In this document: positions 4,147 to 42,935 of the stretch, one piece after another
How the letters are laid out: every line of letters begins with the position of its first letter
How positions within the stretch are numbered: the stretch's first letter is position 1
IMG/VR virus record: IMGVR_UViG_2529292907_000021
DNA from: a virus
Lineage: Duplodnaviria; Heunggongvirae; Uroviricota; Caudoviricetes
Reading direction: 5' to 3' (one strand)
Length of the DNA: 42,935 nucleotides
The notes under the pieces: generated by a model
What the model was told of the DNA's origin: nothing
The model's input: the letters and a program-made list of their open reading frames with translations, nothing else
Databases searched by the model: none
Translations under genes and position numbers: made by a program

Positions 4147-4161
4147 GAAGATCTCCTGGCA

Positions 4162-4192
4162 ATAAAAAACCCGCCGGAGCGGGTTTGTTTAA
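4162..4192 (-). terminator. Intrinsic terminator downstream of the moron pair, upstream of the spike gene
   Basis: Minus-strand reading: AAACCCGCTCCGGCGGGTTTTTTATT (stem CCCGC/GCGGG plus T7 run), located between the stop at 4195 and the spike RBS. Confidence 0.6.
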
Positions 4193-4194
4193 AT

Positions 4195-4566
4195 TTATTT
4201 AGCACTTGGTGGCGGAACTATAGTTTCAGCCCAGCAGCGACACTTACCGCCAGGGCAGCATTTTCCCTCACCAGGCAGGCCAGTTTTGGGCGGTCTTTTC
4301 CATCTGAACACTTTCCCATTGTTCTTAGCGCAAGCATTACAACATCCGCTATCCCCTGCAGTATGCCACCGGAACTTAGTTGCCCCGATGTGTTCTGCGC
4401 GAAGCATATTGTATCTCGCATGTTCAGCAACGCTGCGCTTAATTCGGTTAAACTCAAAATTCCTAACAAACTGGTCATCACGTTTCTTTTTGCGGTTTTT
4501 TACAAAGCCACGAACAATCAGAAACAAAACTACGAGGATGACAGCAATTCCTGGCTCCATGGTCAT
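4195..4566 (-). CDS. Small membrane-anchored protein with a Cys-rich domain homologous to the C-terminus of MuF-type head morphogenesis proteins
   Basis: N-terminal hydrophobic helix (IAVILVVLFLIVRGFV) then ...FRWHTAGDSGCCNACAKNNGKVFRWKRPP...GKCCPGGKCRCWAETIVPPP, which aligns by eye with the C-terminus of the head morphogenesis protein at 17293..18045 (...YWWRIEGAGTRDSHYKMRNKFVRWDNPP...GCLPNCKCWPEIQVPPP). Confidence 0.5.
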   Translation of the reverse strand: MTMEPGIAVILVVLFLIVRGFVKNRKKKRDDQFVRNFEFNRIKRSVAEHARYNMLRAEHIGATKFRWHTAGDSGCCNACAKNNGKVFRWKRPPKTGLPGEGKCCPGGKCRCWAETIVPPPSAK

Positions 4567-4919
4567 TCAACCTTCATGCAGTCGTAAGTACCAAAAATAC
4601 GAGGCTCGCTCATGTTTTGGCGTACTGCTTCAGCATTGAGAATTCCTTTCCCATTGCGTTTTATGTAATCGAGGCCATACCGCTGTCCCGTGTTTTCATT
4701 CAGGACGATCCATTGCATTTTTATGTTCTCGTAATCACCCTCTTTTTTGAGAAAAGTTACCTTCTGACCATCAGGCTTAGCGCCGTTTATCCTCGGGTAT
4801 CCGTCATTCTCGGATGAGGTTGAAAACACAAATGGTCCGCACTTCATGTAGTCAGAATTTTCCGCCAGTGAAGCAAAGCTAACCAATGTTAAAGAAGCCA
4901 TCAAAAGTAGTTTTTTCAT
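4563..4919 (-). CDS. Secreted/periplasmic protein with cleavable signal peptide, unknown function
   Basis: N-terminus MKKLLLMASLTLVSFASLA is a classic Sec signal peptide; the gene overlaps both neighbours by 4 nt (translational coupling); visibly AT-rich relative to flanking tail genes. Confidence 0.5.
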   Translation of the reverse strand: MKKLLLMASLTLVSFASLAENSDYMKCGPFVFSTSSENDGYPRINGAKPDGQKVTFLKKEGDYENIKMQWIVLNENTGQRYGLDYIKRNGKGILNAEAVRQNMSEPRIFGTYDCMKVE

Positions 4920-5983
4920 TGTGGAGCCGTTCGCTGTAGGGCCGAATTCGACTGCAAATCACGTGCCCCTCGAGCCATACACATGAGATCCATATACCAT
5001 GGATTTCCCCTCGTATCACCGGTGTAGCTTATTGACTGGACAATGTAGACGCCATCAGTGGCCACACTGGCGGGCTGCGCTATAGTGCCGCCAAGTGAAA
5101 GGTTACCATCATTGCTCGACTCTGTGATTCTTGCCTGTGATCTTTGGATCTCATCGTTCGGCAGTTGGGTGCGATAGACAGATGCCTGGTCAAGCTGAAT
5201 TAAGCCGTTCACCCTGATGTTGGGGTTAATCAGGCAGCGAACATTGACGCCAGCACCCATGGTCTGCTGCGGCATCCCTATGAGCCCGGTAGCGCTGCTC
5301 AGCACAATGGCCTCGTGTAGATATTTATCTTCAGGAACCATCTGCGCCTGACCGTCCACAAACTGCCAGTTGGCGTTGCATTGCGCCGCAAGATTGCTCA
5401 TGTAATCACGGGTCATACCGTAGAACACCCGGCCCCGTGGCATCACGCGGTCCGGAAACTCTCCGGTAACACCCTGGGTTATACCGAACGGGGAGAAATC
5501 TCTCATCAGCACCGAGTGAACATCTGACAGCTTATACCCGGCAGACAGGCTGCCGGATGAAACGGCCTCGTTAAACGCCTGGTGCCCATCGATGGACTGA
5601 ATCAGGGTAAAAATGTCGGTGGGGTTATCTCGCCCGGTGATTGTGAAGCGGATCTCACCGTTGAAAATCCCCCCGAAGTTCTGGCCTAGCGTCTGCCCAA
5701 CCTGATCTGGCGACACATCCGTTACCTGTCCTACCTGGCTTTCAGATACCGGCGGTGCCAGCCCGTCATACCCGGCAATAATAGTGATCCGAGAGAACTC
5801 TGAGCCCGTTATACGGCTCATGGTGTCGCGGTTGAGGTTGTAAATCTTTAGCGTTGCGACTCGCGGCCACATGGAGTTGAACCAGTCGATCGCAAACGTC
5901 ACCTTAAAATCAGTCAGGGAAATACCCTGACCGGAATCATCCAGCAGGCGCAGTTCAAAGTGACGCCTCCAGTTTACGGTCAT
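4916..5983 (-). CDS. Baseplate hub-like tail protein (Mu P / P2 gpD-like position)
   Basis: 355-aa ORF two genes downstream of the tape measure in a contractile-tail module; assignment mainly positional. Confidence 0.45.
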   Translation of the reverse strand: MTVNWRRHFELRLLDDSGQGISLTDFKVTFAIDWFNSMWPRVATLKIYNLNRDTMSRITGSEFSRITIIAGYDGLAPPVSESQVGQVTDVSPDQVGQTLGQNFGGIFNGEIRFTITGRDNPTDIFTLIQSIDGHQAFNEAVSSGSLSAGYKLSDVHSVLMRDFSPFGITQGVTGEFPDRVMPRGRVFYGMTRDYMSNLAAQCNANWQFVDGQAQMVPEDKYLHEAIVLSSATGLIGMPQQTMGAGVNVRCLINPNIRVNGLIQLDQASVYRTQLPNDEIQRSQARITESSNDGNLSLGGTIAQPASVATDGVYIVQSISYTGDTRGNPWYMDLMCMARGARDLQSNSALQRTAPQ

Positions 5984-9882: not shown

Positions 9883-11376
9883 TTAGCGCACCACGTCGAT
9901 TAATACGTCAGCGAAGTGGATAGCACCCGTCAGTTTGGTTGCCACCTGGATCACCGGAGCTTTTCGCGCCTCACGGTCTGCCTGAGCTTGCGCATTGAGC
10001 GAGTTAGCGAAGACGTAATAGCCTTTGGTCAGCATATCCCCTGCCGTCAGTTGCCCGACGTCACCACCGTTCCAGATACCCGGAGCCACCAGGCCGTTAT
10101 TCGCTGACTGGTCCATCGATTGCTCAATGTTGGTTACCAGGCGCGTCACACCGGCTTCAGTCTGTGGAATTTTGGTGGTGGAGGTGTAAAGCAGGTTCCA
10201 GAGGTTGTTCTGGACGTAGTTCTGCAGCCAGTCGAGCCCGTGACGTTCGTCGAAGAAGTCGCCGTTAGACATCACCCCTTCCTGGATGATTGCTGTGTCG
10301 TTGGCATAACGCACGAACACGTTGCAGTTTTTGGCCTTCAGCGTATCGGCTTGCTGCGCGGTGATAGTCTCGGCAGTGATGCCCGGCTCCTGCTTGAACT
10401 TCAGGGTAATGGTGGTGTTATTGCCCAGGAAATTGACAGTGAACGCACGCCCGAACGCAGAAGCTGCTGCATAAGGCGTTTTGCTGTACTGGCAGAACAC
10501 GCGCCCGTAACCCGCAGCTTTAAGCTTGCTGGCAATGTCCATGGCGTTCGTACCATCAAGCACCGTGGCATCAGCTGAAGTCACGCCGTACACGCGAGAA
10601 TCACTGGCAGAGCCAATCAGCGCGGCGACATCGAGGTGATCCTGGTCTGTCATCGTCGCATCAGCAATCACCAGGCCATACCAGTCAGCGGAATATCCCA
10701 GCGCCGCCGCGACAGAAGGAACAGCAGAGCCTGCATGTGCCGCTGTACCGTTTACTGCAACCGGATGGCTACCCGCATCGATACCCATCAAAGGAGCCAG
10801 ATCCGTTCCTGCCCCTGCTGCTGATGGAATGCCAACAATGGATGCCGCACCGGTTGTTGGTGAGGTGATCAGGAAGTGCGAGGTCACCGCATTCCACGTC
10901 ACAACCGCGCCTGCCAGTTTGGTGCTGATGGCCGTTGCCACTTCTGCCAGGGTTGTCACCGCCGACAGGTCAACAGCACTGATATTTTTTGCAGCACCAT
11001 CAATGGTGATATTCAGCGCGCCATCGGTGACAGCGCTGAAGTTTTCAATACGCTGCTCAGAGGCATTCAGCTGCGCACCCGTGAGTGTGCCTGCGGTTGC
11101 TGGAATTGGCGTTCTGTCCATTTTGCCAATGTACAAATCCAGTGGCTGGGGCGACTGCTGGAAGTAAAGGTTTGCGGCCTTGTACTCTTCTGACGTGGTG
11201 CCGAAGTCAGCGGCCACACTTTCAATATCGTTATACAGACGCATAACTTCTGGCGCGGTCAAAACACCGGACGTGCCGAGAGCCAGCAAAGCGCCGAAGT
11301 CCCGGCCCTGCGCGGCTCGTAGCGCGAGCGAAACCTGCACGCGTACGACGCGTGAGACTGATAAGCCGTTAGGCAT
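9883..11376 (-). CDS. Tail sheath protein
   Basis: 497-aa ORF preceding the tube gene; size and order are characteristic of contractile-tail sheath proteins. Confidence 0.6.
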
Positions 11377-17292: not shown

Positions 17293-18045
17293 CTATTTAC
17301 GCGGAGGCGGCACTTGAATCTCCGGCCAGCATTTGCAGTTCGGCAGGCATCCGGCATGCCCGGTCATTTCGTCCAGAGTGGGTGGGTTATCCCAGCGCAC
17401 GAACTTATTCCTCATTTTGTAGTGGGAATCGCGGGTACCAGCGCCTTCAATGCGCCACCAGTAACCTTCTGAGCCAATCGACTCGGCGCGCGCCTGGGTG
17501 AGTGCTGTGGTAGCCCTGCCGATTTCGGTGCGGGCGATCATCTTCGCGCGGCTCTCCGCTACGTCGCCGGACTCCATAATCATCCGGTAGAGCGCGTCGG
17601 GGCGTTCACCGTTGATGACAGCTTCCATTGCACGCGCCTGGATGTCACGGACGCGATCGGCAGCCTCCAGCGGCAGAGACTTAATCAGCTGCACCTGGCG
17701 GGACACTATGTCCTGTGCCACGAACCCCACCGGCGTATTGCCGACGACATCTCGCAGCCCCTCGGAGATATCCTGCGATACCGAGCGCCACTGGCTCCAC
17801 TCCTCCTGCTCAACCTGCAGGAACATGCGTTTAGCGACCCGGTCGGCCCAGTCGTCAATCAGCAGGGAGTAATCCATCAGCCGGGCGTTAACCTGCTCGG
17901 CGCTCGCTTCCGAACCATCGTAGGAACCAGTTACTATCGCGCCGCACTGACGCGCTATCTCCTGTAGGCTTTTCTGATACTGGCGCTCCGATTTGCGGCG
18001 GAGGTTCGGTTTCAGATTCAGCCTCCTCCCATTCTGCTTTGGCAT
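17293..18045 (-). CDS. Phage head morphogenesis protein (MuF / SPP1 gp7 family); start uncertain
   Basis: C-terminal region ...MIARTEIGRATTALTQARAESIG...FVRWDNPP...GCLPNCKCWPEIQVPPP matches the MuF-type C-terminal motif; the ORF extends to 18138 but overlaps the portal gene, so the internal ATG at 18045 is used. Confidence 0.6.
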   Translation of the reverse strand: MPKQNGRRLNLKPNLRRKSERQYQKSLQEIARQCGAIVTGSYDGSEASAEQVNARLMDYSLLIDDWADRVAKRMFLQVEQEEWSQWRSVSQDISEGLRDVVGNTPVGFVAQDIVSRQVQLIKSLPLEAADRVRDIQARAMEAVINGERPDALYRMIMESGDVAESRAKMIARTEIGRATTALTQARAESIGSEGYWWRIEGAGTRDSHYKMRNKFVRWDNPPTLDEMTGHAGCLPNCKCWPEIQVPPPRK

Positions 18046-19402
18046 CTTCAATATCCTTGTCGGTGATAGAGCCGCCGATGCCGATGATGTCGGACAGGTT
18101 GCGGAGGTCGTTAAGCGCAGCGTGTTGAGGCATACCAATATCGCGTACGGCGGTCGCCAGGGCGGTGGCCACGTTACTCGCCATCGTCGCCCGGTCGGTG
18201 TCCGACATCTCCCAGAGCTTGTTGAACTCGAAGGTGAAGTCTTCCGGTAGTGGTTGGCCGAACAGTGATCGCCATGTGATATCCAGCAGCCAGCGGATGT
18301 GGCGGCGCAGGCGGCGTTCCTGTAGCGAGTTAACGCGGCTGTAGTAGTTCTCTAGGTCACCGTCACCAGTGCTGAATCCAGATGGCGATTGCCCGAACAG
18401 GCGTACCAGCGGGATACCGGTTGCTCCGGACACCTGCTCAGCAAAGCGCAGGATGACGTCGGCTATCCCCGCGAACGAGTAGCTGTGGGTCTGGAATTCA
18501 TCGTTTTTATCCATCAGGGTCATGCCCTCGATGGTCTGAAATTCACGGATCATGTCCATATGCTTCATCAACCCCTCATGCATGGGGTTGCCAGGGCCGA
18601 GCGCAAGAATTTTGCGCAGCCCCTCAATGCTGTATGTACGAAGGTGAGCTTTGTGGATCAGCTGCGTGGTACCGACGGTCGCCGTATCGAAAGCCTGAAT
18701 GCGCTCGAAGATACGCTCGACGACAGACATACCCCAGCCGTTCTCGGTCTGCGCCTGCTGGAACGGTAACGATTCACCCTCCATGCGGATAATGCGACTG
18801 TGGTGAATCTTCCAGGGTGGAATCCCCTGCTGGTTGGTCACCACCTTGTAATACTTCGGTTTGCCGAACTCCGGGCCATAATCGGTCACCAGATCGTAAT
18901 AGCTCGGGTTGACCTGCCATCGGTCGAGGCACATCACCCCTTTAAACTGACCCTCTTTGATGCGGTCGAGCTTAAGCGGGGTGGACATGTCCTGCCCTTC
19001 CAGCAGCACCACCAGCAACGCGCCGCCATAAAGCCTTGACCACTTCAGGGTATCGTTGAGGCCGTCCCAGATCGCGATATCGTCCCAGAAGGTTTCGAAC
19101 TTACCTTTCTGGCCCGGCTTTAATTTCGAGCTGATGTTAATGCCCTTACGGGTCATGTCATCAGCCATCGCGTCTACGCCAGCACCCACCAGAAACGATG
19201 ACCGGTAGGCGAATTCCAGTTGTACACGGTTGCGCGAGATATAGCCTGGCTGGTAACTCCCGCCGCTCTGGATATTGGCAGTGTAACCACCAAGTTTGGC
19301 AGCGAAATTGTTATACCCGTCAGCAGTCGCAACGGGCTTTTTAGCGCCGTTATGGCGGTTCTTGCGGGACATAATTAACCTCTTTGACCAAGTGCGGCCC
19401 AC
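17888..19402 (-). CDS. Portal protein
   Basis: 504-aa ORF immediately downstream of the terminase large subunit and upstream of the MuF-like gene; acidic C-terminal tail. Confidence 0.6.
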
Positions 19403-20583
19403 GATCCAAGTCCGTCAGCGCTTGTGATGTATCCATCAAGCGAATAGCGCACGGCGTCCCAAAGGTGGTTGTGCTTATCCACGACAACCGGTAGCACTTC
19501 GCCGGTCATGCGGTCTGTTTTATAGGAGTAGAGGCGCGCCTCATCGACCATGTGCTTGCAGCGCTCATGGATAATGATCTCTTCAAACCCTTTCAGGTAT
19601 GTGATTCCGTCCTCAACGCTGCCAGGCCACTTCGTAGCCCCGTCGATAACGAAGCCCTGACGTGACAAGTAGCTGATTGTTTCAGGTCGGCTGCAGTCAC
19701 CGTGGATGGGCCACTTTCTGGACTCCGGGATAGAGTCATAGAACGAAGCCATTTCATCTAGTTCGACGCCAACACCGTAGGCCTCGTACTCGATATAAAG
19801 CCTGGTGCCAATGATGAAGCAGCGAACCAGTGTTGACGGGTCATTAGCAAAACCGAAGTCAGCGCCATAGAACAAACGATCGGCACTTTGCCACAAGTCG
19901 TCAGCGAACGCTTCAACCCGGTACTTGCCGGAGAAAATGACAGCTTCACTGAGCGCTTTCGGCAGGCCAAGCCAGATATGTTCGTAGGCTTCGAAGTCGA
20001 TACGCTTGCAGTACTCCATCTCGTGCCGGAGCACGTCAGGAAAGAAGGCGTTATCAACGTAATTGACGCAGGTGATGATTGCGCCGCCATCAGGGGGATC
20101 AGCGCGGTGCCGTTCCATCATGGCGTAGGTCGGGTCGGTAGCCTCACGCGGGTTGAATGACACCCACACTTCCGATTTATTGGCGCGAACGGTCGGGCCA
20201 AGGATATCCCAACTATCCTGCGATACAGTCTGCGCCTCTTCCACCCAGCATATTTTGATGCCGTGCATCGACTTAATGCTCTGGATGTTGTTACGTAGGC
20301 CTTTGAAGGTAAAGCGCGTGCCGTTGCTGCCCTCTATCTCGTTATTCTTGACCTTGTAGAAGTGCGCTAGGCCAAGCGAGTGGATCTCCGCATCCAGTAG
20401 CGCAAGTACCGAATCGTTGATGGAGTTCTGGAACTCACGAGCGCAGAGGATGATCATCGGCTCGATAGCGCCCAACAATACCAGCGCGCGGGCAATCTCT
20501 ACCGACTTGCCACCACCGCGACCGCCATACGTCCAGCGCCAGCGAACAGAGCCTATCGGTGCGTCGTACAGCGTACACATCAC
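19375..20583 (-). CDS. Terminase large subunit
   Basis: N-terminal Walker A-like motif (YGGRGGGKS) followed by a nuclease-type C-terminal region; 402 aa; precedes the portal gene. Confidence 0.7.
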
Positions 20584-30729: not shown

Positions 30730-31215
30730 TCATACCGAACCGCTTTTAACAAAGATAATCCAGTGAGTTTTGTCGTTCTTTCCGGTACGCTGACCAATTG
30801 CAGGTTTCACATCTGTAAGTGCCAAAATCTGGCTAACAGGGATCTGCGTCTCGTTCCATTTGAATATGAGAACGCCGTGTGGCCACAGTACGCGAAAAGC
30901 CTCTTTGAATCCGCTTCGTAAATCAGAACGCCACGTTTTTTTGTTCAGTCGCCCGTATTTTTTACCCATCCAGGCAGACTGGCCAACGCGCTCGAGGTGC
31001 GGCGGGTCAAACACCACAACCGGAAAAGAAGAATCAGCGAACGGCAGTGAACGAAAATCGGCAATCAGGTCGGGACTGATAACCAGGCGGCGACCGTCGC
31101 ACAGTTCGTGCTCTTCGGCGCGGATATCAGTGAACACGGCGCGGGTGTCCTGCTTGTTGAACCAGAACATGCGGGAGCCGCAGCACATATCAAGAATCGT
31201 CGTGCTGTCGGTCAT
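30730..31215 (-). CDS. Small putative SAM-dependent DNA methyltransferase (start chosen at ATG overlapping upstream stop)
   Basis: Contains a motif I-like ILDMCCGSR and a motif IV-like VVVFDPPH (DPPH/DPPY class of amino-methyltransferases); ATGA overlap with the upstream gene. Confidence 0.4.
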   Translation of the reverse strand: MTDSTTILDMCCGSRMFWFNKQDTRAVFTDIRAEEHELCDGRRLVISPDLIADFRSLPFADSSFPVVVFDPPHLERVGQSAWMGKKYGRLNKKTWRSDLRSGFKEAFRVLWPHGVLIFKWNETQIPVSQILALTDVKPAIGQRTGKNDKTHWIIFVKSGSV

Positions 31216-31523
31216 ACTGATGTTCTCCCGTAAAACGCCAGAACCCGCTGCATCGCCGGACTTGTGCGGCATACTGATGCGACCACGTTTTTTCTCATGC
31301 TCGATTTGAGCTGCTTGATGTTCAGATCCCCGCCGGGCTGAAGCATGTAGACCGGGTGATGCGGATCGCCAGTGCGGATAACTACCGCTCTGCGTACCAG
31401 GTGAAGCAGCAGGTTGTGTGCCTTCTTGCAGTCGCATCCCAGAAGGTTCTGAACCTGACGCGGCGTTACGGTCTGGTTAGCCTGAAGAAAATCAACGATT
31501 GCCCACAGTGATTTGCTTGCCAT
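31212..31523 (-). CDS. Hypothetical phage protein (103 aa), downstream of the DnaC-like gene
   Basis: ORF in operon orientation, translationally coupled to the methyltransferase-like gene. Confidence 0.35.
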   Translation of the reverse strand: MASKSLWAIVDFLQANQTVTPRQVQNLLGCDCKKAHNLLLHLVRRAVVIRTGDPHHPVYMLQPGGDLNIKQLKSSMRKNVVASVCRTSPAMQRVLAFYGRTSV

Positions 31524-31541
31524 AGTGATTTGCCCTCGAAG

Positions 31542-32291
31542 TTATTTAACGATCCGGAGATGACTAACGTTCTTGCGATAGCTGCCCCAGTCAAAGTTCA
31601 CCCACATTCCGCCATCCATCTGGAGGCGATCGATAACCCGCGCACCCAATGCGCCGAGAAGTTCGTAATGGTTCAGATTCGTCAGAACGCCAACCGGGCG
31701 CATCGACGACAGCCGACGATCGATAACCTGATTCAGAATGACTTTCTCCCCGTTGCTACCGCGCTGAATACCGACTTCATCCAGCACCAGCAGATCGACT
31801 TTGCAGAGGTCATCCAGAAGTGAAGCCTCGGATTGACCACCGTCGTAGCACTCGCGAACGCGTAGCATCAGGTCAGGGATTGTCACCACCAGCACTGATT
31901 GGCCACCGGACAGGAGATGATTTCCGATCGCTGCTGCCAGATGGTTTTTCCCGGTACCAGGTCCACCGCTAAACACGAAGCTCGCAAAGCCAGCACCAAA
32001 GTTCTGTGCGTAGCTTTTCGCCATGGTGTAGGCCTTGCGCTGTTGCTCACCGGATACTTCGTAGTTGGCGAACGTGCAGCTGCGGTGCAGGCCCTGGATG
32101 CCAGAACGCCCGAAGATTTTCTCTGTGCGCGCTTTCTGATTCCGCTTGCCCAGCTCTTCGCAATGTTTCAAGCCTTCTTCCCGCTGCCACGCCAGCAGTT
32201 CTGCTGCATTGGTGAACTTCGGCTGTACGCCTGGCGGAATGAGTTTCTTCAGGCGCTCAAGAGCGCTGCCGGAATTAACAATGTTTTTCAC
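31542..32291 (-). CDS. Replication protein, DnaC-like helicase loader (IstB-like AAA+ ATPase)
   Basis: Walker A motif GGPGTGKNHLAAAI and Walker B-like LLVLDEVG; 249 aa; immediately downstream of the O-like initiator. Confidence 0.75.
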   Translation of the reverse strand: MKNIVNSGSALERLKKLIPPGVQPKFTNAAELLAWQREEGLKHCEELGKRNQKARTEKIFGRSGIQGLHRSCTFANYEVSGEQQRKAYTMAKSYAQNFGAGFASFVFSGGPGTGKNHLAAAIGNHLLSGGQSVLVVTIPDLMLRVRECYDGGQSEASLLDDLCKVDLLVLDEVGIQRGSNGEKVILNQVIDRRLSSMRPVGVLTNLNHYELLGALGARVIDRLQMDGGMWVNFDWGSYRKNVSHLRIVK

Positions 32292-32293
32292 CG

Positions 32294-33238
32294 TTACCCC
32301 CTGAATCCGGTTGGGATGGTTTTATCTGGCTCAGAAATGCGGTTCACATCCCTTCCCGTTTTGCGGTCGTTGAGAGCGAACTTCGGTTTGAACAGTCCCT
32401 GGTAGCCGTTGGCGATACTGGTGTTGATCACGTCAACCGGGTCATGCCCTGCGTCCAGGCATGCCTTCAGCAACTTGAACGCTTTGGTGACCGTCAGTTC
32501 GGTCTTGATGGCTTTGCCAGACTGCTGGCGATAGGAAACCCACTCACCCCAGGACACAGAATCAAGCCACTCAGGAACGAGAATTGTCAGCGGGTCAAAC
32601 TTCACCTTCCCCCCTGGGGGATTAGAGGGGGTTAGATCTGTTTTTATATTTGTCTTTGGAAGAATGTCTTTGGTGTTCCCTGTTTTCAGGGATACCTCTC
32701 CCTGTTTTTGGGGATGGTTATCCCCGTTTTCAGGGATAGCTGAAGGGGTAAAATTGCTATCCCTGAATTCGGGGATGGTAATAACCCATGTAACAACTTC
32801 AGCAGCAGGAAACACCGCTGGACACTTCATGCAATTTGGCTTGGTATACGCCCATTTATCCAGGCTGGTATTAATCCCAATGTATCTGGTTTGCCCAATG
32901 CGGCGCAGGATGATGATGTTCCGATAGGCTAGGCTCAGCACGGCTTCTGAGACGTGTTTCACCTTAAGCGTCGTTTTGTCTGCAATGAGGCTATTGGCGA
33001 TGCGGTCCGAACTCTTGGACCAGCCATAGGTCAGACGAACGATAGCGTTCAGCACCCGGAACTCACGCCCGGATAGTTCGACGATACACAGGGCATCCTG
33101 AATCTGGTTGGCCAGGCGCAAATAGCCTTTCTCCAGCTCAGCCATGCTGCTCTCCTGTTTCCCCTGCTGCGTGGGGAATTTGAATATTTCAGCGGTATTT
33201 GACATACTGTTCTCCGCAATTACCTTCCGTTTTTGCAC
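32294..33238 (-). CDS. Replication initiator O-like protein (contains origin iterons); start uncertain
   Basis: 314-aa ORF upstream of the DnaC-like gene; its coding sequence contains four ~18-bp iterons resembling lambda ori repeats. Confidence 0.6.
   Translation of the reverse strand: MQKRKVIAENSMSNTAEIFKFPTQQGKQESSMAELEKGYLRLANQIQDALCIVELSGREFRVLNAIVRLTYGWSKSSDRIANSLIADKTTLKVKHVSEAVLSLAYRNIIILRRIGQTRYIGINTSLDKWAYTKPNCMKCPAVFPAAEVVTWVITIPEFRDSNFTPSAIPENGDNHPQKQGEVSLKTGNTKDILPKTNIKTDLTPSNPPGGKVKFDPLTILVPEWLDSVSWGEWVSYRQQSGKAIKTELTVTKAFKLLKACLDAGHDPVDVINTSIANGYQGLFKPKFALNDRKTGRDVNRISEPDKTIPTGFRG
32680..32790 (-). repeat. Origin-of-replication iterons (four ~18-bp repeats, consensus near TCCCTGTTTTCAGGGATA) with adjacent AT-rich stretch
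   Basis: Plus-strand copies: TCCCTGTTTTCAGGGATA, TCCCTGTTTTTGGGGATGG, ATCCCCGTTTTCAGGGATA, ATCCCTGAATTCGGGGATGG; the AT-rich segment at ~32630-32670 lies downstream in the O-gene direction, as in lambda ori. Confidence 0.6.
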
Positions 33239-33289
33239 CTGAAAGCCGTTGGTGTTCTAGCACCGCGGCTTTCGCCATTTTTGAACCCG

Positions 33290-33829
33290 TCATACAGCCC
33301 CCAGCATCAACTGCACCATCTCCATCAGCGGACCGGTTAAGCCAGGGTCAACGCGGTACATCTCCACGATCCCCTCGCTCAGCTCTTTCAGCTTCTGATG
33401 ACGCGGCGCATCCATTGCGACAGCTATCTTCGCTTCGCTGGTTTCCTTCTCCATACGTGCCAGACGGGCCATGACGTTGTCTTCTGGCAGCAGGCGACTG
33501 CGGTACACAATCGGCAGAACGGCGAGGATTGCAGGAGTCAGCTGGCGGACGTTCTCGCGGTAACGTTCGCTGTTGAAATGGTTATCCAGGAAGCGGAAAA
33601 GCTTCTGGCGCTTTCGGCAGAGATCGTCAGGGAAAGTGATGTCATCACCACCCTGTGCCTGGTACTCTTCGATGATCAGAGCCGTAACTACGTCCTGACC
33701 ATCGGCACCAGCCCAGGAGCGGACCGCGTCACGAATATCTTCGTGGCTCGGCCCCCTACGTGCTTGAGCGCGATTTATCATTACCCCTTGAGTAATGTCG
33801 CTATCATTCTGGTAAGTAAGTGTCTGCAT
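33290..33829 (-). CDS. YdaT-like early regulatory protein (Rac-type immunity region)
   Basis: Segments IIEEYQAQGG and QLTPAILAVLPIVYRSRL resemble Rac YdaT as recalled; located immediately after the Cro/YdaS-like gene. Confidence 0.5.
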   Translation of the reverse strand: MQTLTYQNDSDITQGVMINRAQARRGPSHEDIRDAVRSWAGADGQDVVTALIIEEYQAQGGDDITFPDDLCRKRQKLFRFLDNHFNSERYRENVRQLTPAILAVLPIVYRSRLLPEDNVMARLARMEKETSEAKIAVAMDAPRHQKLKELSEGIVEMYRVDPGLTGPLMEMVQLMLGAV

Positions 33830-33840
33830 GGTTAATGCTC

Positions 33841-34050
33841 CTACTTTGGTAAACCGTCAGTGGGATTTGGGTAGAGATCTGGGCGCAGCTCGTGTGGCGT
33901 TACGCCGGTTGCCTCAAACACTGGTAGCACTCGTTCGGCAGGAATTCCTTTACGGCGCCACAGCGAAACAGCCATTTTTGAAACGCCGATCAAAGCTCCA
34001 AGCGCGCTGGCCGAGCCAGATCGGAGAATTGCATTTTCAATACCAGTCAT
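33841..34050 (-). CDS. Cro/YdaS-like HTH regulator
   Basis: 69-aa protein with HTH (SALGALIGVSKMAVSLWRRKGIP) and the ...HELRPDLYP tail typical of the YdaS/Cro-like family; divergent from the repressor gene. Confidence 0.6.
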   Translation of the reverse strand: MTGIENAILRSGSASALGALIGVSKMAVSLWRRKGIPAERVLPVFEATGVTPHELRPDLYPNPTDGLPK

Positions 34051-34147
34051 AGGACCTCCTTAAGTGAGCAAAGTAAAGCACCAATTTACTATTGAGTCAA
34101 TACACGCCTGCCTACCAACTGGTAAAGCTATTGTTTACAATCCCTAC

Positions 34148-34531
34148 ATGAACAAAAAAGATCCTAACCAGAGCCTTATTTCCAGGCTGACTGAATTGAA
34201 TGGCAAAGGCTTCTCAAAAACAGAGATGGCCAAGGTTGCTAATGTCAGTAAGCAGGCGGTAACCGGATGGTTTAGAACCGGTAAAATCAGCAAAGAATCT
34301 GCCCTCGCTGTTGCAGACGCTGCTGGCGTGTCTGTGCCATGGCTACTCGGCGAGGATGTTGGAGAGAAAGACGGCCTTAAGCCGGACGAACAGCGCCTGC
34401 TGGAGCTCTATCGCCAGTTGCCGGAAGAAGAGCAGCAGAACATGCTCCGCATCTTTGCCATTCGCCTGAAAGAGTTGGACGAGTTGTATGAGAAATACAT
34501 GAAGGGGCGTATTCGTTCTCAGGGAGAGTGA
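34148..34531 (+). CDS. DicA/RacR-like prophage repressor (HTH, no peptidase domain); start chosen at internal ATG
   Basis: HTH LISRLTELNGKGFSKTEMAKVANVSKQAVTGW and a C-terminal region (LKPDEQRLLELYRQLPEEEQQNMLRIFAIRLKEL) resembling DicA as recalled; the internal start leaves a ~97-bp divergent control region with the cro-like gene. Confidence 0.6.
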   Translation: MNKKDPNQSLISRLTELNGKGFSKTEMAKVANVSKQAVTGWFRTGKISKESALAVADAAGVSVPWLLGEDVGEKDGLKPDEQRLLELYRQLPEEEQQNMLRIFAIRLKELDELYEKYMKGRIRSQGE

Positions 34532-34700
34532 TGTGTTCTGGTCGGAGAATGGCTGGTAGTGAACGGCGTGGCATTGCGCCAAGGCAATTAATTCAACCTC
34601 TTAGTCGCCATATCCCATAAAGGATTCCGGCTAAATTTGTTACCGATACTACCAATGCAATTGTGGCAAAAATATCTGAACCGGACATAAGGAAATCTCC

Positions 34701-36098: not shown

Positions 36099-38858
36099 AT
36101 GGAATTCTTTAATGTGGTTAAAGCCACTCAGAAATCCGGAAAACAAGATGCAGTGGTCTGGTTCACTGCGAAAACCGAGGCTCGCGCCAACCTGCAACTG
36201 GACGTTGCACTGGAAGATGCTGGCATCGAAATGGGTCGCGGTAAGGACTACGCCAAACCGATTCGCACAGATTTTCCTGTTGTTGATGACCTGCCAGAAG
36301 AAGGCGAAGTTGATTTCACATGGTGCGAACGTTACGAACTGGCCGAAGACCAGCGCACCTGGAATGTTAAGCAACAGGCTGAAGATGAGTCTGTCGACGA
36401 CGCCGATACTGAAGACAGCACCGCAGAAGAATCTCAGCAGTCAGAGCAGCCGAACCTGATCGTCGTTGCCACCCTGCCATTCCGTCAGCGCGTACTGGCT
36501 CAGTTCATCGGTGATGGTGAATATCTCTATCACGTCGACGCTGGGCAGAAAAACGAGATTGTCCGCCTTGAGATGGACACTGATAACGCGTACGCCCAAA
36601 ACCTGCTGCTGGCTGCTGAGAATGTGGAAGCATTCAAAAAAGCCATTGAGCACGATATCCATAAAGTCGTGAATGCCGTTAAGAAAGCCTTCCCTGTCGA
36701 CGGTAAAAAACCGGAACTGGCAACAGTTATCCAGTTCCTGACGGTGTGGTTCAACACTGATTACATCGACCGTGGCATCCTGGCGCGCGAATGGACCGCC
36801 GGTAACCGCATCAGCAATGTTCAGCGCACCGATTCCGGTACCAACGCCGACGGCGGATATGTCACTGACCGTGGCGAAAATGCTTACCACACGCTGGATA
36901 CTCTGGATTTAGAGATTGCCTGCGCCCTGCTCCCAATGGACTTTAACCATCTTGAAATCCTGGGCAGCATCCACCGCCGCGCCAAAGAGATAGTGGCCAA
37001 CAAAGAACAACCATGGAAATCATGGAGCAGCATCCTGCGCAATCAGCCTGGCGTTCTGTCGGTAAACCGCGCTGCCATCTTCAATCTGGTGCGCATCGCG
37101 CCGGAAAATATTCACCTGACGCCAGTTGCACATCTGGAGTTCGTTAACCAGACCATGACAGCTGAGTTCAATTCAGCAACTGAGTTGCTGCCGTTGCCAG
37201 TAGCTGGCGCGCAGGAACCAAACAGTCAGGATCAACCTCGAGTTGAGAATCTTGGCGCTGGAATTTTCTCCATAGAAAGCCTGATGGGTGATCAACAACC
37301 AAAAACAGATGACCGTTCACCACTTAATGAGGAAACCACCAGCGATGTGCAGATGGAAGAAACTGTCAGTGATGAAGAACAGGCTGGTAATGAAGTGCAG
37401 CCAGGCGAAAGCAGTCTGGAAACTGGTGAAGAGTCACATACCGGCCAGCAAGCCGATGTAAACCAGAATGCGGACTCTGTCGTCCAAAATAGCGATTCTG
37501 TAAACCAAGCCGAACCAGTTGCTGCGCAAACCGAGCCAGAAGCGAAATCTGACGAACCGGCTGTTGTGTATCCCGCTTACTTCGAGCCTGGGCGCTATGA
37601 AGGTCTGCCGAACGAGGTTTATCACGCAGCGAACGGGATCAGCAGCACGCAGGTAAAAGATGCCCGCGTCAGCCTGATGTACTTCAACGCACGCCACGTC
37701 GCCAAAACGATCACCAAAGAGCGTTCTCCAGTTCTGGACATGGGTAACCTGGTGCATGGACTGGCGTTGCAGCCAGAGCAGCTTGATGAAGAGTTCAGCG
37801 TTGAACCGATGATCCCGGAAGGCGCGTTCACCACGACGGCAACAATCCGCGCGTTTATCGATGAGTACAACGCAGGTCTGCCAGAGCAATTGAGCGCCGA
37901 CGACATAAAGACATTGCTCGAGGAATACAACGCCACTCTGCCTGCTCAGGTACCACTGGGTGGTTCAGTCGAGGAAACTGGCCAGAGCTACATGTCGCTG
38001 CCAGAAGAGTACCAGCGGATCGAAGCGGACCAGAAGCAGACCGCAGCGGCGATGAAAGCCTGCATCAAGGAATACAACGCCAATCTGCCTGCCCAGGTGA
38101 AAACCAGTGGTAGCCGTGATGCCTTACTCGAGCAGCTGGCAATCATCAATCCTGACCTGGTGGCGCAGGAAGCGCAGAAACCGCAACCGCTGAAAGTGTC
38201 CGGTACCAAAGCGGATCTGATTCAGACCGTGAAGTCTGTGAAACCAGACGCCGTCTTTGCCGACGAACTGCTGGATGCGTGGCGCGAGAATCCGCAAGGG
38301 AAAGTACTGGTCACCCGCCAGCAACTGAGCACCGCACTGGCCATTCAGAAAGCCCTGCTACAGCACCCAACTGCCGGGATGCTGCTTCAGTACCCGAGTC
38401 GCGCCGTTGAGGTCAGCTATTTTGGCTTTGACGATGAAACCGGTCTGGAAGTCCGCGTTCGTCCAGACCTTGAGATCGACCTGGACGGAGTGCGCATCGG
38501 TGCCGACCTGAAAACCATCAGCATGTGGAACATTAAGCAGGAAGGCCTGCGCGCCAAGCTGCACCGGGAAATCATCGACCGTGACTACCATCTGAGCGCC
38601 GCCATGTATTGCGAGACCGCAGCACTGGACCAGTTCTTCTGGATTTTCGTCAACAAGGACGAGAACTACCACTGGATCGCCATCATCGAGGCATCCGCCG
38701 AACTGCTGGAGCTGGGCATGCTTGAGTACCGCAAATCAATGCGTGCTATCGCTACCGGCTTTGACACTGGCGAATGGCCAGCGCCCATCACAGCTGATTA
38801 TACCGACGAACTGAACGACTTCGACCTGCGCCGCCTTGAAGCGCTGCGTCTGGCTTAA
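36099..38858 (+). CDS. RecE-like exonuclease VIII (long acidic N-terminal region plus C-terminal PD-(D/E)xK nuclease domain)
   Basis: 919 aa; C-terminal ~300 aa contain a PD-(D/E)xK-like arrangement (...RPDLEIDLDG...GADLKT...); immediately upstream of a RecT-family gene, as in Rac recE-recT. Confidence 0.55.
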   Translation: MEFFNVVKATQKSGKQDAVVWFTAKTEARANLQLDVALEDAGIEMGRGKDYAKPIRTDFPVVDDLPEEGEVDFTWCERYELAEDQRTWNVKQQAEDESVDDADTEDSTAEESQQSEQPNLIVVATLPFRQRVLAQFIGDGEYLYHVDAGQKNEIVRLEMDTDNAYAQNLLLAAENVEAFKKAIEHDIHKVVNAVKKAFPVDGKKPELATVIQFLTVWFNTDYIDRGILAREWTAGNRISNVQRTDSGTNADGGYVTDRGENAYHTLDTLDLEIACALLPMDFNHLEILGSIHRRAKEIVANKEQPWKSWSSILRNQPGVLSVNRAAIFNLVRIAPENIHLTPVAHLEFVNQTMTAEFNSATELLPLPVAGAQEPNSQDQPRVENLGAGIFSIESLMGDQQPKTDDRSPLNEETTSDVQMEETVSDEEQAGNEVQPGESSLETGEESHTGQQADVNQNADSVVQNSDSVNQAEPVAAQTEPEAKSDEPAVVYPAYFEPGRYEGLPNEVYHAANGISSTQVKDARVSLMYFNARHVAKTITKERSPVLDMGNLVHGLALQPEQLDEEFSVEPMIPEGAFTTTATIRAFIDEYNAGLPEQLSADDIKTLLEEYNATLPAQVPLGGSVEETGQSYMSLPEEYQRIEADQKQTAAAMKACIKEYNANLPAQVKTSGSRDALLEQLAIINPDLVAQEAQKPQPLKVSGTKADLIQTVKSVKPDAVFADELLDAWRENPQGKVLVTRQQLSTALAIQKALLQHPTAGMLLQYPSRAVEVSYFGFDDETGLEVRVRPDLEIDLDGVRIGADLKTISMWNIKQEGLRAKLHREIIDRDYHLSAAMYCETAALDQFFWIFVNKDENYHWIAIIEASAELLELGMLEYRKSMRAIATGFDTGEWPAPITADYTDELNDFDLRRLEALRLA

Positions 38859-38872
38859 TGGAGGATTTGACC

Positions 38873-39913
38873 ATGCAAAATACCAACATCATTACTACTG
38901 AGCAGGCACCAAACACCATTTCCGCCAGCAATGCCGTATTCAACGTGCAGGCGCTCGGGCAGCTCACCTCTTTTGCTGAATTGATGGCGCAGTCTGCCGT
39001 CACCGTACCTAAACACCTGGCGGGGAAACCCGCTGACTGTATGGCGATCGTCATGCAGGCTATGCAGTGGGGAATGAACCCATATGCAGTTGCCCAGAAA
39101 ACGCATCTGGTCAACGGCGTTCTGGGTTACGAAGCGCAACTGGTCAACGCAGTAATCTCCAGCTCCAGCGCCATCGTGGGCCGCTTCCATTACGAATACG
39201 GCGGTGACTGGGAGAAGATCGCCGGCAAAAAAGACGGCCGCGATGAATTAGGACTGTTTATACGGGTTGGCGCCGTACTGCGCGGAGAAGAAGAAATCAC
39301 CTGGGGTGAGCCAATCTACCTGGCTGATATCACCACACGTAACTCTCCATTGTGGAAAACAGCACCGAAGCAGCAGATCGCTTATCTGGCAGTGAAGTAC
39401 TGGGCGCGCTTGTACTGCCCAGAAGTCATCCTTGGCGTCTACAGCCCAGATGAAGTTGAACCGCGCACAGAGAAGGAGATTAACCCGGCGCCGCAACGCG
39501 TTAGCCTGGCGGATATCTCAGGTGACACCGTCACAACCACGCAGAGCGCACAGGAATCATCGGTAAATATCGGCTCACCGGCCGATGATTTCCGCGAACG
39601 CATCGATGCTGCACAGGATGTTGATAGCGCCAAAGCACTGCGCGCTGATATCGAAAGCGCGAAGGTCACGCTCGGTTCTGCCCTGTTCACCGAGCTGAAG
39701 AACAAGGCAGTTAAGCGCTATTACCTGGTTGATTCACGTAACAAGGTTGAAGCCGCGATCAACTCTCTACCGTCTCCGGATGAACCGGGCGCAGCAGAAC
39801 GATTCGCCGAAGTTGAGCGCGTGCTGGCAACCAATAAGCGTCACATGGGCGACGAGCTGCACGATCGGTTCAGCATCACCCTGGCGGATATGAAACCGGA
39901 ATACGTGGCCTAA
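38873..39913 (+). CDS. RecT/Red-beta family single-strand annealing protein
   Basis: Start at the ATG preceded by GGAGGA; ~346 aa; follows the RecE-like gene; conserved basic/aromatic core (QQIAYLAVKYWARLYCPEVILG) compatible with the RecT family. Confidence 0.5.
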   Translation: MQNTNIITTEQAPNTISASNAVFNVQALGQLTSFAELMAQSAVTVPKHLAGKPADCMAIVMQAMQWGMNPYAVAQKTHLVNGVLGYEAQLVNAVISSSSAIVGRFHYEYGGDWEKIAGKKDGRDELGLFIRVGAVLRGEEEITWGEPIYLADITTRNSPLWKTAPKQQIAYLAVKYWARLYCPEVILGVYSPDEVEPRTEKEINPAPQRVSLADISGDTVTTTQSAQESSVNIGSPADDFRERIDAAQDVDSAKALRADIESAKVTLGSALFTELKNKAVKRYYLVDSRNKVEAAINSLPSPDEPGAAERFAEVERVLATNKRHMGDELHDRFSITLADMKPEYVA

Positions 39914-40917: not shown

Positions 40918-41190
40918 ATGGCCAAGCTTCTTAATCTGCAGGAATGGGCGAATTCGACTTATTCAACCCCGCCGTCTCTTTCAACACTTCGCCGCTGGGC
41001 GCGGGAGGGGCGCATTTACCCTGCTCCGGAACTTCACGGAAAAGAATATAAGGTTCAGCCTGACGCCATCTATGTGGATCCGAGCAAAAAGAACCTTCGT
41101 CCCAAATCAAAACGCTTAGCGCTGCCAACTGGCGGCACTCTACTGGAGAGACTGACTCATGGCGAAAAGGCCAGTACGTTACGACGCTAA
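40918..41190 (+). CDS. xis: Excisionase (lambda Xis-like)
   Basis: N-terminus MAKLLNLQEWANSTYSTPPSLSTLRRWAREGRIYPAPELHGKEYKV closely parallels lambda Xis (MYLTLQEWNARQRRPRSLETVRRWVRECRIFPPPVKDGREY); overlaps the int start. Confidence 0.65.
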   Translation: MAKLLNLQEWANSTYSTPPSLSTLRRWAREGRIYPAPELHGKEYKVQPDAIYVDPSKKNLRPKSKRLALPTGGTLLERLTHGEKASTLRR

Positions 41191-42244
41191 CCTGCCCCGT
41201 AACCTGACCTATCGTAAAAGAGACAGGCTTTATAGCTGGCGAAACCCGATTACCGGTCAAGAATTATCTCTTGGCCGGATCGACAGAAAGGACGCCATTT
41301 CTCAGGCCATCGAGGCCAACAACTACATCGACCAAAATTACCTTCCGTCAGCGCTGCTTGACCGCATAAAGGAAACACCAACATTTACGGTGAAAGCGTG
41401 GCTCGAGCGCTACGAAGTAATTCTTGAGCGAAGAGAATTGAAGCCCAACACGATGAAGGTCAGGCGCAATCAGATCGCCACTATCAGTGATGAATTCGGA
41501 CGTATGCCGCTATCGGCGGTCAGCACAAAGGACGTATCTACTTTCCTGGAGAGTTACATACTCTGCGATAAGAAGAGCATGGCCTCTGGCCTGCGATCGG
41601 TATTGTTGGATATTTTCAGGGAGGCGATCGTCGAGGGACATATTGAAAGGAACCCGGCAGAGCCGACAAGAACGCCGACACCAAAAGTGAAGCGTGAGCG
41701 TCTTTTGCTCGAGCAGTTTGAGATAATAAGGGATGCCGCAACTGCTCATTCTGGATGGGCTGCAAATGCATGTGACCTGGCGCTGGTCACCGGGCAGAGA
41801 AGAGAGGACGTATCGCTGTTCAGATTCAGCGATATCAGGGATGGAAGATTGTTTGTCACACAGGAAAAGACAGGTCACAAATTGGCGTTGCCACTTGATT
41901 TGCGACTGGACTCTGCTGATTTGGTATTGCAGGATGTTATCGACCGTTGTCGTAAAAACAACCCGTCAGACTTCATGCTTTATTCTGCGGTAAGGCGTGG
42001 TGGCCGGAAGCCAGGTCCGTTAACTCCGGACGGAATCACCCAAGCATTTTCTGATATCAGGGATTCTACAGAGTTAAAGTTTGGCCCCAACCCTCCCCCG
42101 TTCCATGAGATCAGGAGCTTGGCGAGCAGGCTCTATGAAAGGGAGCGCGGAGAGGATTTCGCACAGAGACTGCTGGGGCATAAAAATTTAACAATGACCA
42201 AAAAATACCTGGACGCACGCGGTGCAGAATATGTTATGGTTTAG
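41159..42244 (+). CDS. int: Tyrosine integrase (lambda Int-like)
   Basis: 361 aa; N-terminal arm-binding region and a C-terminal catalytic region with ...HEIRSLASRLYERERGEDFAQRLLGHKNLTMTKKYLDARG matching lambda Int (...HELRSLSARLYEKQ...AQHLLGHKSDTMASQYRDDRG). Confidence 0.85.
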   Translation: MAKRPVRYDANLPRNLTYRKRDRLYSWRNPITGQELSLGRIDRKDAISQAIEANNYIDQNYLPSALLDRIKETPTFTVKAWLERYEVILERRELKPNTMKVRRNQIATISDEFGRMPLSAVSTKDVSTFLESYILCDKKSMASGLRSVLLDIFREAIVEGHIERNPAEPTRTPTPKVKRERLLLEQFEIIRDAATAHSGWAANACDLALVTGQRREDVSLFRFSDIRDGRLFVTQEKTGHKLALPLDLRLDSADLVLQDVIDRCRKNNPSDFMLYSAVRRGGRKPGPLTPDGITQAFSDIRDSTELKFGPNPPPFHEIRSLASRLYERERGEDFAQRLLGHKNLTMTKKYLDARGAEYVMV

Positions 42245-42320
42245 ACAGGATATGGAAATTTCGAGTAATTTTCGTGGGATTTCGTGAAAGCACCGAAAAA
42301 ACCCAATGAAAACAGATAGA

Positions 42321-42424
42321 TAAAAAGAGACCGAATACGATTCCTGTATTCGGTCCAGGGAAATGGCTCTTGGGAGAGAGCCGTGCGCTAAAAGTTGGCA
42401 TTAATGCAGGCTTAGTTGCCTTGC
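42321..42424 (-). ncRNA. sdsR: SdsR (RyeB)-like Hfq-dependent small RNA, ~104 nt
   Basis: Minus-strand sequence begins GCAAGGCAACTAAGCCTGCATTAATGCC... and ends in hairpin GACCGAATACAGGAATCGTATTCGGTC plus TCTTTTT; a sigma-S-like -10 (CTATTCT) lies ~7 nt upstream of the inferred 5' end; sequence matches my recollection of SdsR but was not database-verified. Confidence 0.5.
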
Positions 42425-42511
42425 CCTTTAAGAATAGATGACGACGCCAGGTTTTCCAGTTTGCGTGCAAAATGGTCAATAAAAAGCGCGGTAGTCATCA
42501 GCTTAAATGTT

Positions 42512-42553
42512 AAAAACCGCCCGTTCTGGTGAAAGAACTGAGGCGGTTTTTTA
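42512..42553. terminator. Bidirectional intrinsic terminator (possible 3' end of plus-strand RyeA/SraC-like RNA and of the minus-strand yebY-like gene)
   Basis: Hairpin AAACCGCC-...-GGCGGTTT flanked by T-runs on both strands. Confidence 0.5.
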
Positions 42554-42581
42554 TTGGAAATCAAAAGGCTATTTTAGGTAA

Positions 42582-42935
42582 TTAACAGAGTTTTTCAGCT
42601 CGTTCTATAAACGGTGCCAGACTCATTTTTTCGCCGGGATTGTTAGGATCATCAATCTGAATCACCGAAATCGGCTGGGCTTTAGTCTTCCCACTGGCAA
42701 CTTCCTTTTGTGCGATATCGTTTAAAGGATACTGCACGAGGGTACTTGGGTTGATGACATACAAAGCATTACCCGGTCGGCAAGTCAGCATCACCTCTTC
42801 GCGATTAAACGCCCATTTGTCTTTACCCACTTCAAAACGGCTGACGGTAATCACCTGCGGTGCCGCCAGCGCCGCTGCAGAACTGGTGAGTAACAGAAAC
42901 GCCAGAATACTTTTTTCATCATTTTCGTAATCCAT
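42582..42935 (-). CDS. yebY: Host periplasmic protein with signal peptide (YebY/DUF2511-like); start at or beyond the window edge
   Basis: Translation contains signal-peptide-like [18 protein letters not shown] followed by a ~95-aa domain with two Cys; ORF begins at the last base of the window, so the true start may differ. Name from memory and from adjacency to the sdsR-like locus. Confidence 0.4.

Follow-up and report, generated by a model that had tools for sequence, protein, structure and literature searches.

A candidate lambda-type replication origin of the Gifsy subtype within the O-like initiator gene of an Escherichia coli prophage

The window analysed here, a stretch of 42,935 nucleotides, looks like a largely complete prophage in an E. 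coli chromosome. Its right end (42318-42935) shares 99.5% identity with E. coli yebY/copD and is adjoined by an integrase gene, and RecE/RecT, terminase, portal, head protease, tail sheath, and tape-measure proteins are also encoded. The genes of the replication region (Table 1) lie in a leftward operon beside the immunity region, and the upstream gene order is common to Gifsy-1 and E. coli PSJ-22. That leftward transcription from the immunity region crosses the origin described below is assumed from the gene order only; a simple scan of the immunity region found no sigma-70 consensus promoter there, a result that has no bearing on transcription of the pR type. Based on the YdaS and YdaT matches, the window could have been expected to represent the Rac prophage, and the ydaU-ydaV module of Rac in E. 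coli K-12 has the same layout (racR, ydaS, ydaT, initiator, DnaC-like gene, DUF977). However, this assignment had to be rejected, as the N-terminus of Rac YdaU is annotated as DUF1376 and not as Phage_rep_O and shows no similarity to the N-domain of the window, so that only the C-terminal domain is common to both proteins.

Table 1. Genes and sequence features of the replication region and the adjoining immunity region, with their positions in the window.
Feature	Position	Strand	Description
HTH repressor-like gene (immunity region)	34064..34531	+	divergent; Pfam HTH_3 and Phage_CI_repr
Cro/YdaS-like gene	33841-34050	-	Pfam YdaS_toxin, E = 1.6e-12; upstream in the same leftward operon
YdaT-like gene	33290-33829	-	Pfam YdaT_toxin, E = 8.8e-25; holds the position of lambda cII
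O-like replication initiator gene	32294..33205	-	303 aa from ATG 33205; ORF open back to GTG 33238
Putative N-terminal origin-binding domain, aa 1-119	32849..33205	-	homologous to lambda O aa 1-116; Pfam match
Iteron 4 (distal)	32760-32777		TCCCTGAATTCGGGGATG on +, O-sense CATCCCCGAATTCAGGGA; codons 143-149, peptide TIPEFRD
Spacer	32739-32759		between distal iteron and proximal triplet; sets the 39-bp start-to-start gap
Iteron 3	32721-32738		TCCCCGTTTTCAGGGATA on +; peptide AIPENGD
Iteron 2	32699-32716		TCCCTGTTTTTGGGGATG on +; peptide HPQKQG, differing codon phase
Iteron 1	32677-32694		TCCCTGTTTTCAGGGATA on +; adjoins AT tract; peptide VSLKTGN, third codon phase
AT-rich tract	32630-32676		putative DNA-unwinding element; O-sense strand A-rich (ACACCAAAGACATTCTTCCAAAGACAAATATAAAAACAGATCT)
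C-terminal O domain, aa 186-303, presumed loader-recruiting	32297..32650	-	last 22 aa KTGRDVNRISEPDKTIPTGFRG
DnaC/IstB-like AAA+ gene, presumed helicase loader	31542..32291	-	249 aa; starts 2 nt past the O stop codon

The O-like gene most likely starts at the ATG and not at the GTG further upstream, since the resulting N-terminus MSNTAEIFKF... matches the MTNTAKILNF... of lambda O, and since the comparison with annotated relatives points to the same start. The N-terminal part of the protein is recognised as PF04492 Phage_rep_O (E = 1.3e-27; 96.6 bits versus a cutoff of 28.7), and its residues 1-119 are 40% identical to residues 1-116 of lambda O, so that an initiator with the origin-binding domain type of lambda-like origins is predicted. 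The protein shares 75% identity with Gifsy-1 O and 96% with the 'replication protein' of E. coli PSJ-22, and a PDB sequence search gave no match at E <= 0.01. Residues 186-303 are unrelated to lambda O and share 45% identity with the last 119 residues of Rac YdaU. The protein encoded directly downstream matches IstB_IS21 (PF01695; E = 1.6e-15; 57.7 bits versus a cutoff of 24.1) and Bac_DnaA (E = 4e-8), its translation contains the Walker A motif GPGTGKN and the Walker B motif LLVLDEVG, and it is 86% identical to the 'DnaC homolog' of Gifsy-1 and 53% identical to Rac YdaV. By these matches, it can be assigned to the DnaC/IstB-like AAA+ helicase-loader family, its role as a loader being presumed. 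It does not resemble lambda P to a significant degree (E = 0.06 over 30 aa), and the window therefore does not contain the lambda O-P module in the sense of a lambda-P homologue downstream of O. The original prediction had assigned the two genes as a replication initiator and a DnaC-like gene, and both assignments are borne out by the domain matches.

Four repeats are embedded in the O-like gene. Each of these iterons is a 17-18 bp imperfect palindrome of the form TCCCYG-(A/T)4-CRGGGA, and they follow each other with start-to-start spacings of 22, 22, and 39 bp. When the consensus TCCCYGWWTTYRGGGAT was searched with up to two mismatches, the four iteron sites were the sole matches in the entire window, and they accounted for 6 strand-matches, as the palindromic character of two of the sites lets them match in either orientation; 0.15 ± 0.44 strand-matches were expected, and none of 100 shuffles reached 6. 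The window thus has the set of at least three dyad-symmetric repeats of about 18 bp, spaced by about two turns, that defines the iterons of a lambda-type origin. Iterons 1-3 are centred on runs of four or five A residues that recur at 22-bp distance, and the centre of iteron 4 is AATT. Such a central A-tract, which is a further characteristic of lambda-type origins, represents an intrinsic bend of the iteron (Zahn and Blattner, 1985, as cited in PMC7466680). In the 39-bp spacer region, a check by eye revealed no match to the IHF consensus WATCAANNNNTTR. The sole DnaA box of the type TTWTNCACA in the window is found at 39351, far from the origin, and this count is below the chance expectation, so that no role of DnaA is proposed.

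The iterons are directly followed by an AT-rich tract on the side that is transcription-downstream with respect to the minus-strand ORF 32294..33238. Its GC content is 0.30-0.35 in 40-bp windows between 32620 and 32679, as compared to about 0.45-0.60 in the surroundings, and the tract is strongly strand-asymmetric, with an AT skew of -0.43 to -0.58 and thus a pronounced T excess on the plus strand. In terms of nearest-neighbour free energy, 32631-32671 (GC about 0.30) is the least stable 40-mer not only of the O gene but of the whole region 31500-34600, and only 0.4% of the 40-mers in the window are less stable (z = 2.8). A lambda-type origin is expected to carry, immediately beside its last iteron on this side, about 40 bp of AT-rich and strand-asymmetric DNA, and this is the arrangement found. 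Beyond the tract there is only a short CCCCCT...AGGGGG / CCCCC-A-GGGGG dyad (32604-32626) with poorly conserved columns (0.5-0.7); the G+C-rich segment at this position (32600-32629) is unconserved and does not clearly reproduce the palindrome of lambda. Iterons and AT tract together occupy codons 143-192 of the 303 codons and hence the linker between the two domains of the O-like protein (aa 1-119 and aa 186-303), which is the location of lambda-type origins inside their initiator genes.

An alignment to the lambda origin, which had been proposed as a check of the original prediction, was carried out with the four lambda iterons as annotated in the lambda record (39034-39118, inside O). Iterons 1-3 of the window together with the AT tract aligned locally to lambda iterons 2-4 and the lambda AT tract with a score of 70, as opposed to 17.5 ± 2.7 and a maximum of 38 in 500 shuffles. 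Iteron 3 is thereby paired with lambda iteron 2, iteron 2 with lambda iteron 3, and iteron 1 with lambda iteron 4, and a multiple alignment likewise matches the proximal iteron of the window with lambda iteron 4 and the AT tracts with each other (window, TATCCCTGAAAACA-GGGAACACCAAAGACATTCTTCCAAAGACAAATATAAAA; lambda, TATCCCTCAAAACAGGGGGACACAAAAGACACTATTACAAAAGAAAAAAGAAAA). The region is thus homologous to ori-lambda in sequence, and a score so far above the shuffles argues for descent from a common origin sequence, which goes beyond a mere similarity of architecture. We therefore regard 32630-32777, with a probability of roughly 0.85, as the origin of replication in the lambdoid-type early region of this E. 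coli prophage, homologous to ori-lambda and belonging to the Gifsy-1/Gifsy-2 subtype. The original prediction of four dyad-symmetric iterons of about 18 bp, followed in the direction of O transcription by an AT-rich stretch, agrees with these data, with the iterons located at 32677-32777 and found nowhere else in the window. Its view that the architecture mirrors that of ori-lambda holds at the level of sequence features, including the linker position and the strand asymmetry of the AT tract, and its placement of the likely origin at 32630-32795 is supported by the homology to the lambda origin and by the constraint on the iterons that is described in the following.

To collect related loci, we scanned for exact matches to a 24-base motif located where iteron 1 meets the AT tract (GGGAACACCAAAGACATTNTTNCAAA). 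Prophages of 20 representative enterobacterial species contain the motif, with hosts that include Leclercia, Citrobacter, Kluyvera, Pantoea, Klebsiella, Yokenella, Photorhabdus, and Enterobacter, and it also occurs in more than 120 IMG/VR contigs. In the 130 loci that had enough flanking sequence for an analysis of the layout, the AT tract is adjoined by a proximal triplet of iterons spaced by 22 bp, which is followed by a 39-bp gap and then by distal iterons, again at 22-bp spacing. The number of distal iterons varies (one in 55 loci, three in 34, four in 27), and the 3 + 1 layout of the window is the commonest form. The 39-bp gap is kept in nearly all loci, whatever the number of iterons. 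Among 98 distinct sequences, column conservation is 93-97% in the iterons (0.957, 0.955, 0.97, and 0.93 for iterons 1 to 4), 64-81% in the gaps between iterons, with 0.74 for the moderately conserved spacer 32739-32759, and 56-66% in the flanking coding DNA, whereby the motif-based selection inflates the values near the motif. However, conserved iterons alternate with variable gaps, which argues against a pure linkage effect of this selection. Judged from these alignments of about 100 distinct relatives, the iterons are under DNA-level constraint.

The origin could nevertheless be an inactive relic of a cryptic prophage, in which the iterons would still be present only as part of an O gene that is yet to decay. 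The replication module is uncommon in E. coli, being found in 36 of 5426 complete genomes with only 4 full-length matches, and some relatives have lost the DnaC-like gene but keep O and the iterons; in three related loci, the same O gene occurs without a DnaC-like gene, and the requirement for this loader is therefore only presumed. In the window, however, the O and DnaC-like ORFs are both intact, all four iterons fit the family consensus, and genes from the integrase and RecE/RecT to terminase, portal, protease, tail sheath, and tape-measure are retained. As, furthermore, the same module is carried by SPN3UB, which forms plaques, and by the Gifsy phages, which are inducible, we consider a relic unlikely.

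The comparison of the related loci also indicated how the O-like gene is composed. TCCC-N8-GGGA iterons were found in 113 of 113 loci that encode a window-type N-domain (68-100% identical to that of the window and about 40% to that of lambda), whereas TCCC-N9-GGGA iterons were found in lambda itself and in the sole locus with a lambda-like N-domain, which is L010 from Pantoea (63% identical to lambda O); the AT-tract motif is common to the N8 loci, L010, and lambda. At the other end of the protein, the tail ...RDVNxISxPDKxIPTGFRG is paired with a downstream DnaC-like gene in 67 of 67 loci, lambda-like O tails (...DLDFNNTDWAYEVMR, compared to ...LDLTNTDWIYGVDL in lambda itself) are paired with lambda-P-like genes, and another C-domain goes together with DUF6475 (10 of 10 loci). 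A P-like gene is found in some relatives that have the same origin (for example, L007), and within the same C-domain cluster, the lambda-like tail is found whenever the neighbour is P-like. The O gene is also mosaic: with the genes of the E. coli ECCRA-119 type, the window has 32611-33157, i.e. N-domain and origin, in common at about 80% identity, and these genes then continue with a differing C-domain and a DUF6475 gene; with Gifsy-1 and Gifsy-2, it is 32294-32776, i.e. C-domain and origin, at about 83% identity, plus the DnaC-like gene. Mosaic breakpoints thus flank the origin, and together with the segments of homology they delimit the domains of the O-like protein. At the level of sequence comparison, it is shown that the N-domain type agrees with the iteron geometry and that the type of the C-terminal tail agrees with the type of the loader gene, and the three comparisons are in keeping with the classical view of lambda, according to which the N-domain belongs to the origin and the C-domain to the loader.

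The association of iteron geometry with the N-domain type bears on the question whether the repeats could instead serve as an autoregulatory roadblock or as operators for another regulator, be it the repressor or one of the Cro-like and YdaT-like proteins. HTH regulators typically bind to sites with dyad symmetry, and a scan of 31400-34700 for sigma-70 promoters and terminators placed its sole promoter-like match (consensus -35/-10, plus strand) as well as one terminator-like hairpin within the iterons. However, promoter-like sites were fewer than in shuffles (1 versus 2.4 expected), and the match is thus within the chance expectation; it and the hairpin are side effects of the dyad symmetry of the iterons. 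As there is also no iteron-like site in the immunity intergenic region or elsewhere in the window, as the adjacent AT tract is homologous to the unwinding element of lambda, and as the geometry of the iterons tracks the N-domain of O, a role as operators in place of an origin is very improbable.

Because of the 22-bp spacing, successive iterons fall into different codon phases. The phases are 3, 3, 1, and 2, and the encoded peptides (TIPEFRD, AIPENGD, HPQKQG, and VSLKTGN) all differ. The iterons are read in all three codon phases and therefore are repeats at the DNA level and not a peptide repeat. The idea that they only reflect a peptide motif repeated along the O linker and do not act in cis, for which one could point to the loosely repetitive linker peptides (IPEFRD, IPENGD, HPQKQG, SLKTGN), is thus scarcely credible, as it is contradicted by the phases and the differing peptides, by the TCCC and GGGA arms that are the essentially invariant columns of the 98 sequences whatever their codon position, and by the alignment of the same DNA to the experimentally defined iterons of lambda.

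With the region read as an origin of the lambda type, its function can be outlined by analogy, and it is in this way that we infer O-protein binding, unwinding, loader recruitment, and firing. Leftward transcription from the immunity region would express the Cro-like, YdaT-like, O-like, and DnaC-like genes and would cross the origin in the manner of transcription from lambda pR. Dimers of the O-like protein would bind to the four dyad-symmetric iterons via the N-terminal Phage_rep_O domain, and the phased central A-tracts may help to wrap the DNA into an O-some, the strain of which would be relieved as the adjacent 45-bp AT-rich tract melts. The C-domain and tail of O could then recruit the phage-encoded DnaC-like AAA+ loader together with host DnaB onto the opened tract, whereby the DnaC-like protein would take over the role of lambda P. 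The lambda and Stx-phage origin background for this mechanism has been reviewed (PMC7466680).

It is conceivable, although we would put somewhat less than even odds on it, that Gifsy-type origins constitute a distinct specificity class of lambda origins, with 16-bp palindromic iterons whose half-sites are 1 bp closer than in lambda, a 3 + n layout, and an invariant 39-bp gap, and that it is the short O tail, and not the globular C-domain, that picks the helicase loader. In this case, the tail would act as a portable peptide code, by which one and the same origin can be coupled to a loader of either the DnaC type or the P type. This apparent tail code, which ties O to the type of loader, is the most interesting by-product of our analysis. 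For annotation, it is useful that the origin of this prophage can be pinned to about 150 bp and that the assignments of the initiator and loader genes are confirmed. The related loci provide a natural series of lambda-type origins with 4, 6, or 7 iterons, with two geometries that go along with two N-domain types, and with several loaders that go along with different O tails, and this series could help in the design of experiments that address the specificity of initiators and the recruitment of loaders. Current understanding is unchanged, since origins embedded in O and the modular organisation of N-domain with ori and C-domain with loader are textbook lambda biology. It is also long established that iteron number and specificity vary among lambdoid phages.

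Among known systems, the closest named relatives of the window are the Salmonella phages Gifsy-1, Gifsy-2, SPN3UB, and FSL SP-016, and a bat-associated siphovirus. The four Salmonella phages agree with the window in the type of iteron, the 22-bp spacing, the 39-bp gap, and the AT tract, and their origin DNA is about 85% identical to that of the window. Gifsy-1 has seven iterons (4 + 3) in place of the four of the window (1 + 3), and the N-domain DNA has diverged from that of the window beyond the range of megablast. The records of the Gifsy-type relatives annotate the O gene without the iterons, and in the literature searched, we found no paper that describes the iterons of Gifsy or SPN3UB and no experiments on this or any other Gifsy-type origin.

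With ori-lambda, the window shares four dyad-symmetric iterons with a central A-tract and a spacing of about two turns, their position in the linker between the N- and C-terminal domains of the initiator, and an A-rich, asymmetric tract of about 45 bp immediately downstream of the iterons. The operon order, with Cro, a gene at the cII position, O, and the loader, is also that of lambda. The two origins differ in the half-sites, which are 1 bp closer in the window (TCCC-N8-GGGA) than in lambda (TCCC-N9-GGGA), and in the layout, which is 3 + 1 with a 39-bp gap in the window, whereas the lambda iterons are spaced by 20, 24, and 23 bp. Furthermore, the C-terminal O domains are unrelated, the partner is a DnaC/IstB-like AAA+ ATPase in place of P, and the lambda palindrome to the right of the AT tract has no clear counterpart. 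Lambda-type origins inside O are also known from the Stx phages 933W and P27, in which the number of iterons varies, and in which additional iterons are located at the end of the array that points away from the AT tract and lengthen the O linker by further residues (PMC7466680). The origins of the Stx phages are near-identical to lambda in iteron sequence and are used together with P, whereas the origin of the window differs from them in its specificity class and in the type of its loader.

Across about 120 related O-gene loci (L007, L004, L010 and others), the type of gene that lies downstream of the O-like gene covaries with the tail at the C-terminus of the encoded O-like protein. All 67 loci in which O ends with the tail ...RDVNxISxPDKxIPTGFRG have a DnaC-like partner gene, and where the partner is lambda-P-like, the O tails are lambda-like as well (...DLDFNNTDWAYEVMR). 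The globular C-domain ahead of these lambda-like tails nevertheless belongs to the same cluster, despite the lambda-P-like partner. With a DUF6475 partner, O carries a different C-domain (10/10 loci).

Positions of the features in the window
Feature	Window position	Remark
O tail	32297-32362	last 22 codons of O
DnaC-like partner gene	31542-32291	
Ren-like/DUF977 gene and DNA methyltransferase gene	31212-31523 and 30730-31437	downstream of DnaC-like gene
Iteron units	32677-32777	
Lone GATC	32635-32638	within AGATCT
Prophage modules	9883-11376, 17888-20583, 36099-39913, 41159-42935	

There are also loci that lack the DnaC-like gene. L003 (E. coli PSJ-22, 3660-4912) and two other loci encode the same O protein as the window (96% amino acid identity) and carry the same iterons, and in them a DUF977/Ren-like gene directly follows O. 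The missing DnaC-like gene could be explained by a deletion, or such loci could rely on the DnaC of the host. Another combination is found in L010, a locus of Pantoea sp. BAV 3049 (around 5624-5649), in which the N-domain of O is 63% identical to lambda O, the iterons have the lambda geometry TCCC-N9-GGGA, and the gene downstream of O is DnaB-like (462 aa). As L010 combines this lambda-type N-domain and iterons with the AT-tract motif that is also present in the window, conservation of the AT tract seems to be independent of initiator specificity.

In the window and in 130 related loci, the iteron units are blocks that preserve the reading frame: three 22-bp iterons amount to 66 bp, or 22 codons, the invariant gap of 39 bp corresponds to 13 codons, and the forms with one and with four distal iterons differ by exactly one triplet. 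The AT-rich tract of the window contains a lone GATC (Dam/SeqA site), which is only moderately conserved across the family.

The prophage itself joins a lambdoid/Rac-like early region, with RecE, RecT and the order repressor/Cro-like/YdaT-like/O, to a tail-sheath (contractile-tail) structural module, and its integration site adjoins E. coli yebY/copD. The ORFs of its Ren-like/DUF977 and DNA methyltransferase genes overlap as listed.

L035 and two similar loci encode an O of 448 aa, in which about 120-145 residues are inserted after the linker encoded by the ori and ahead of the C-terminal domain. The similarity of Rac prophage YdaU (L005, E. coli K-12 ydaU-ydaV) to the window's O-like protein is confined to the C-terminal domain, and the N-terminus of YdaU is a DUF1376 domain; one loader-side module is thus attached to two unrelated N-terminal regions.
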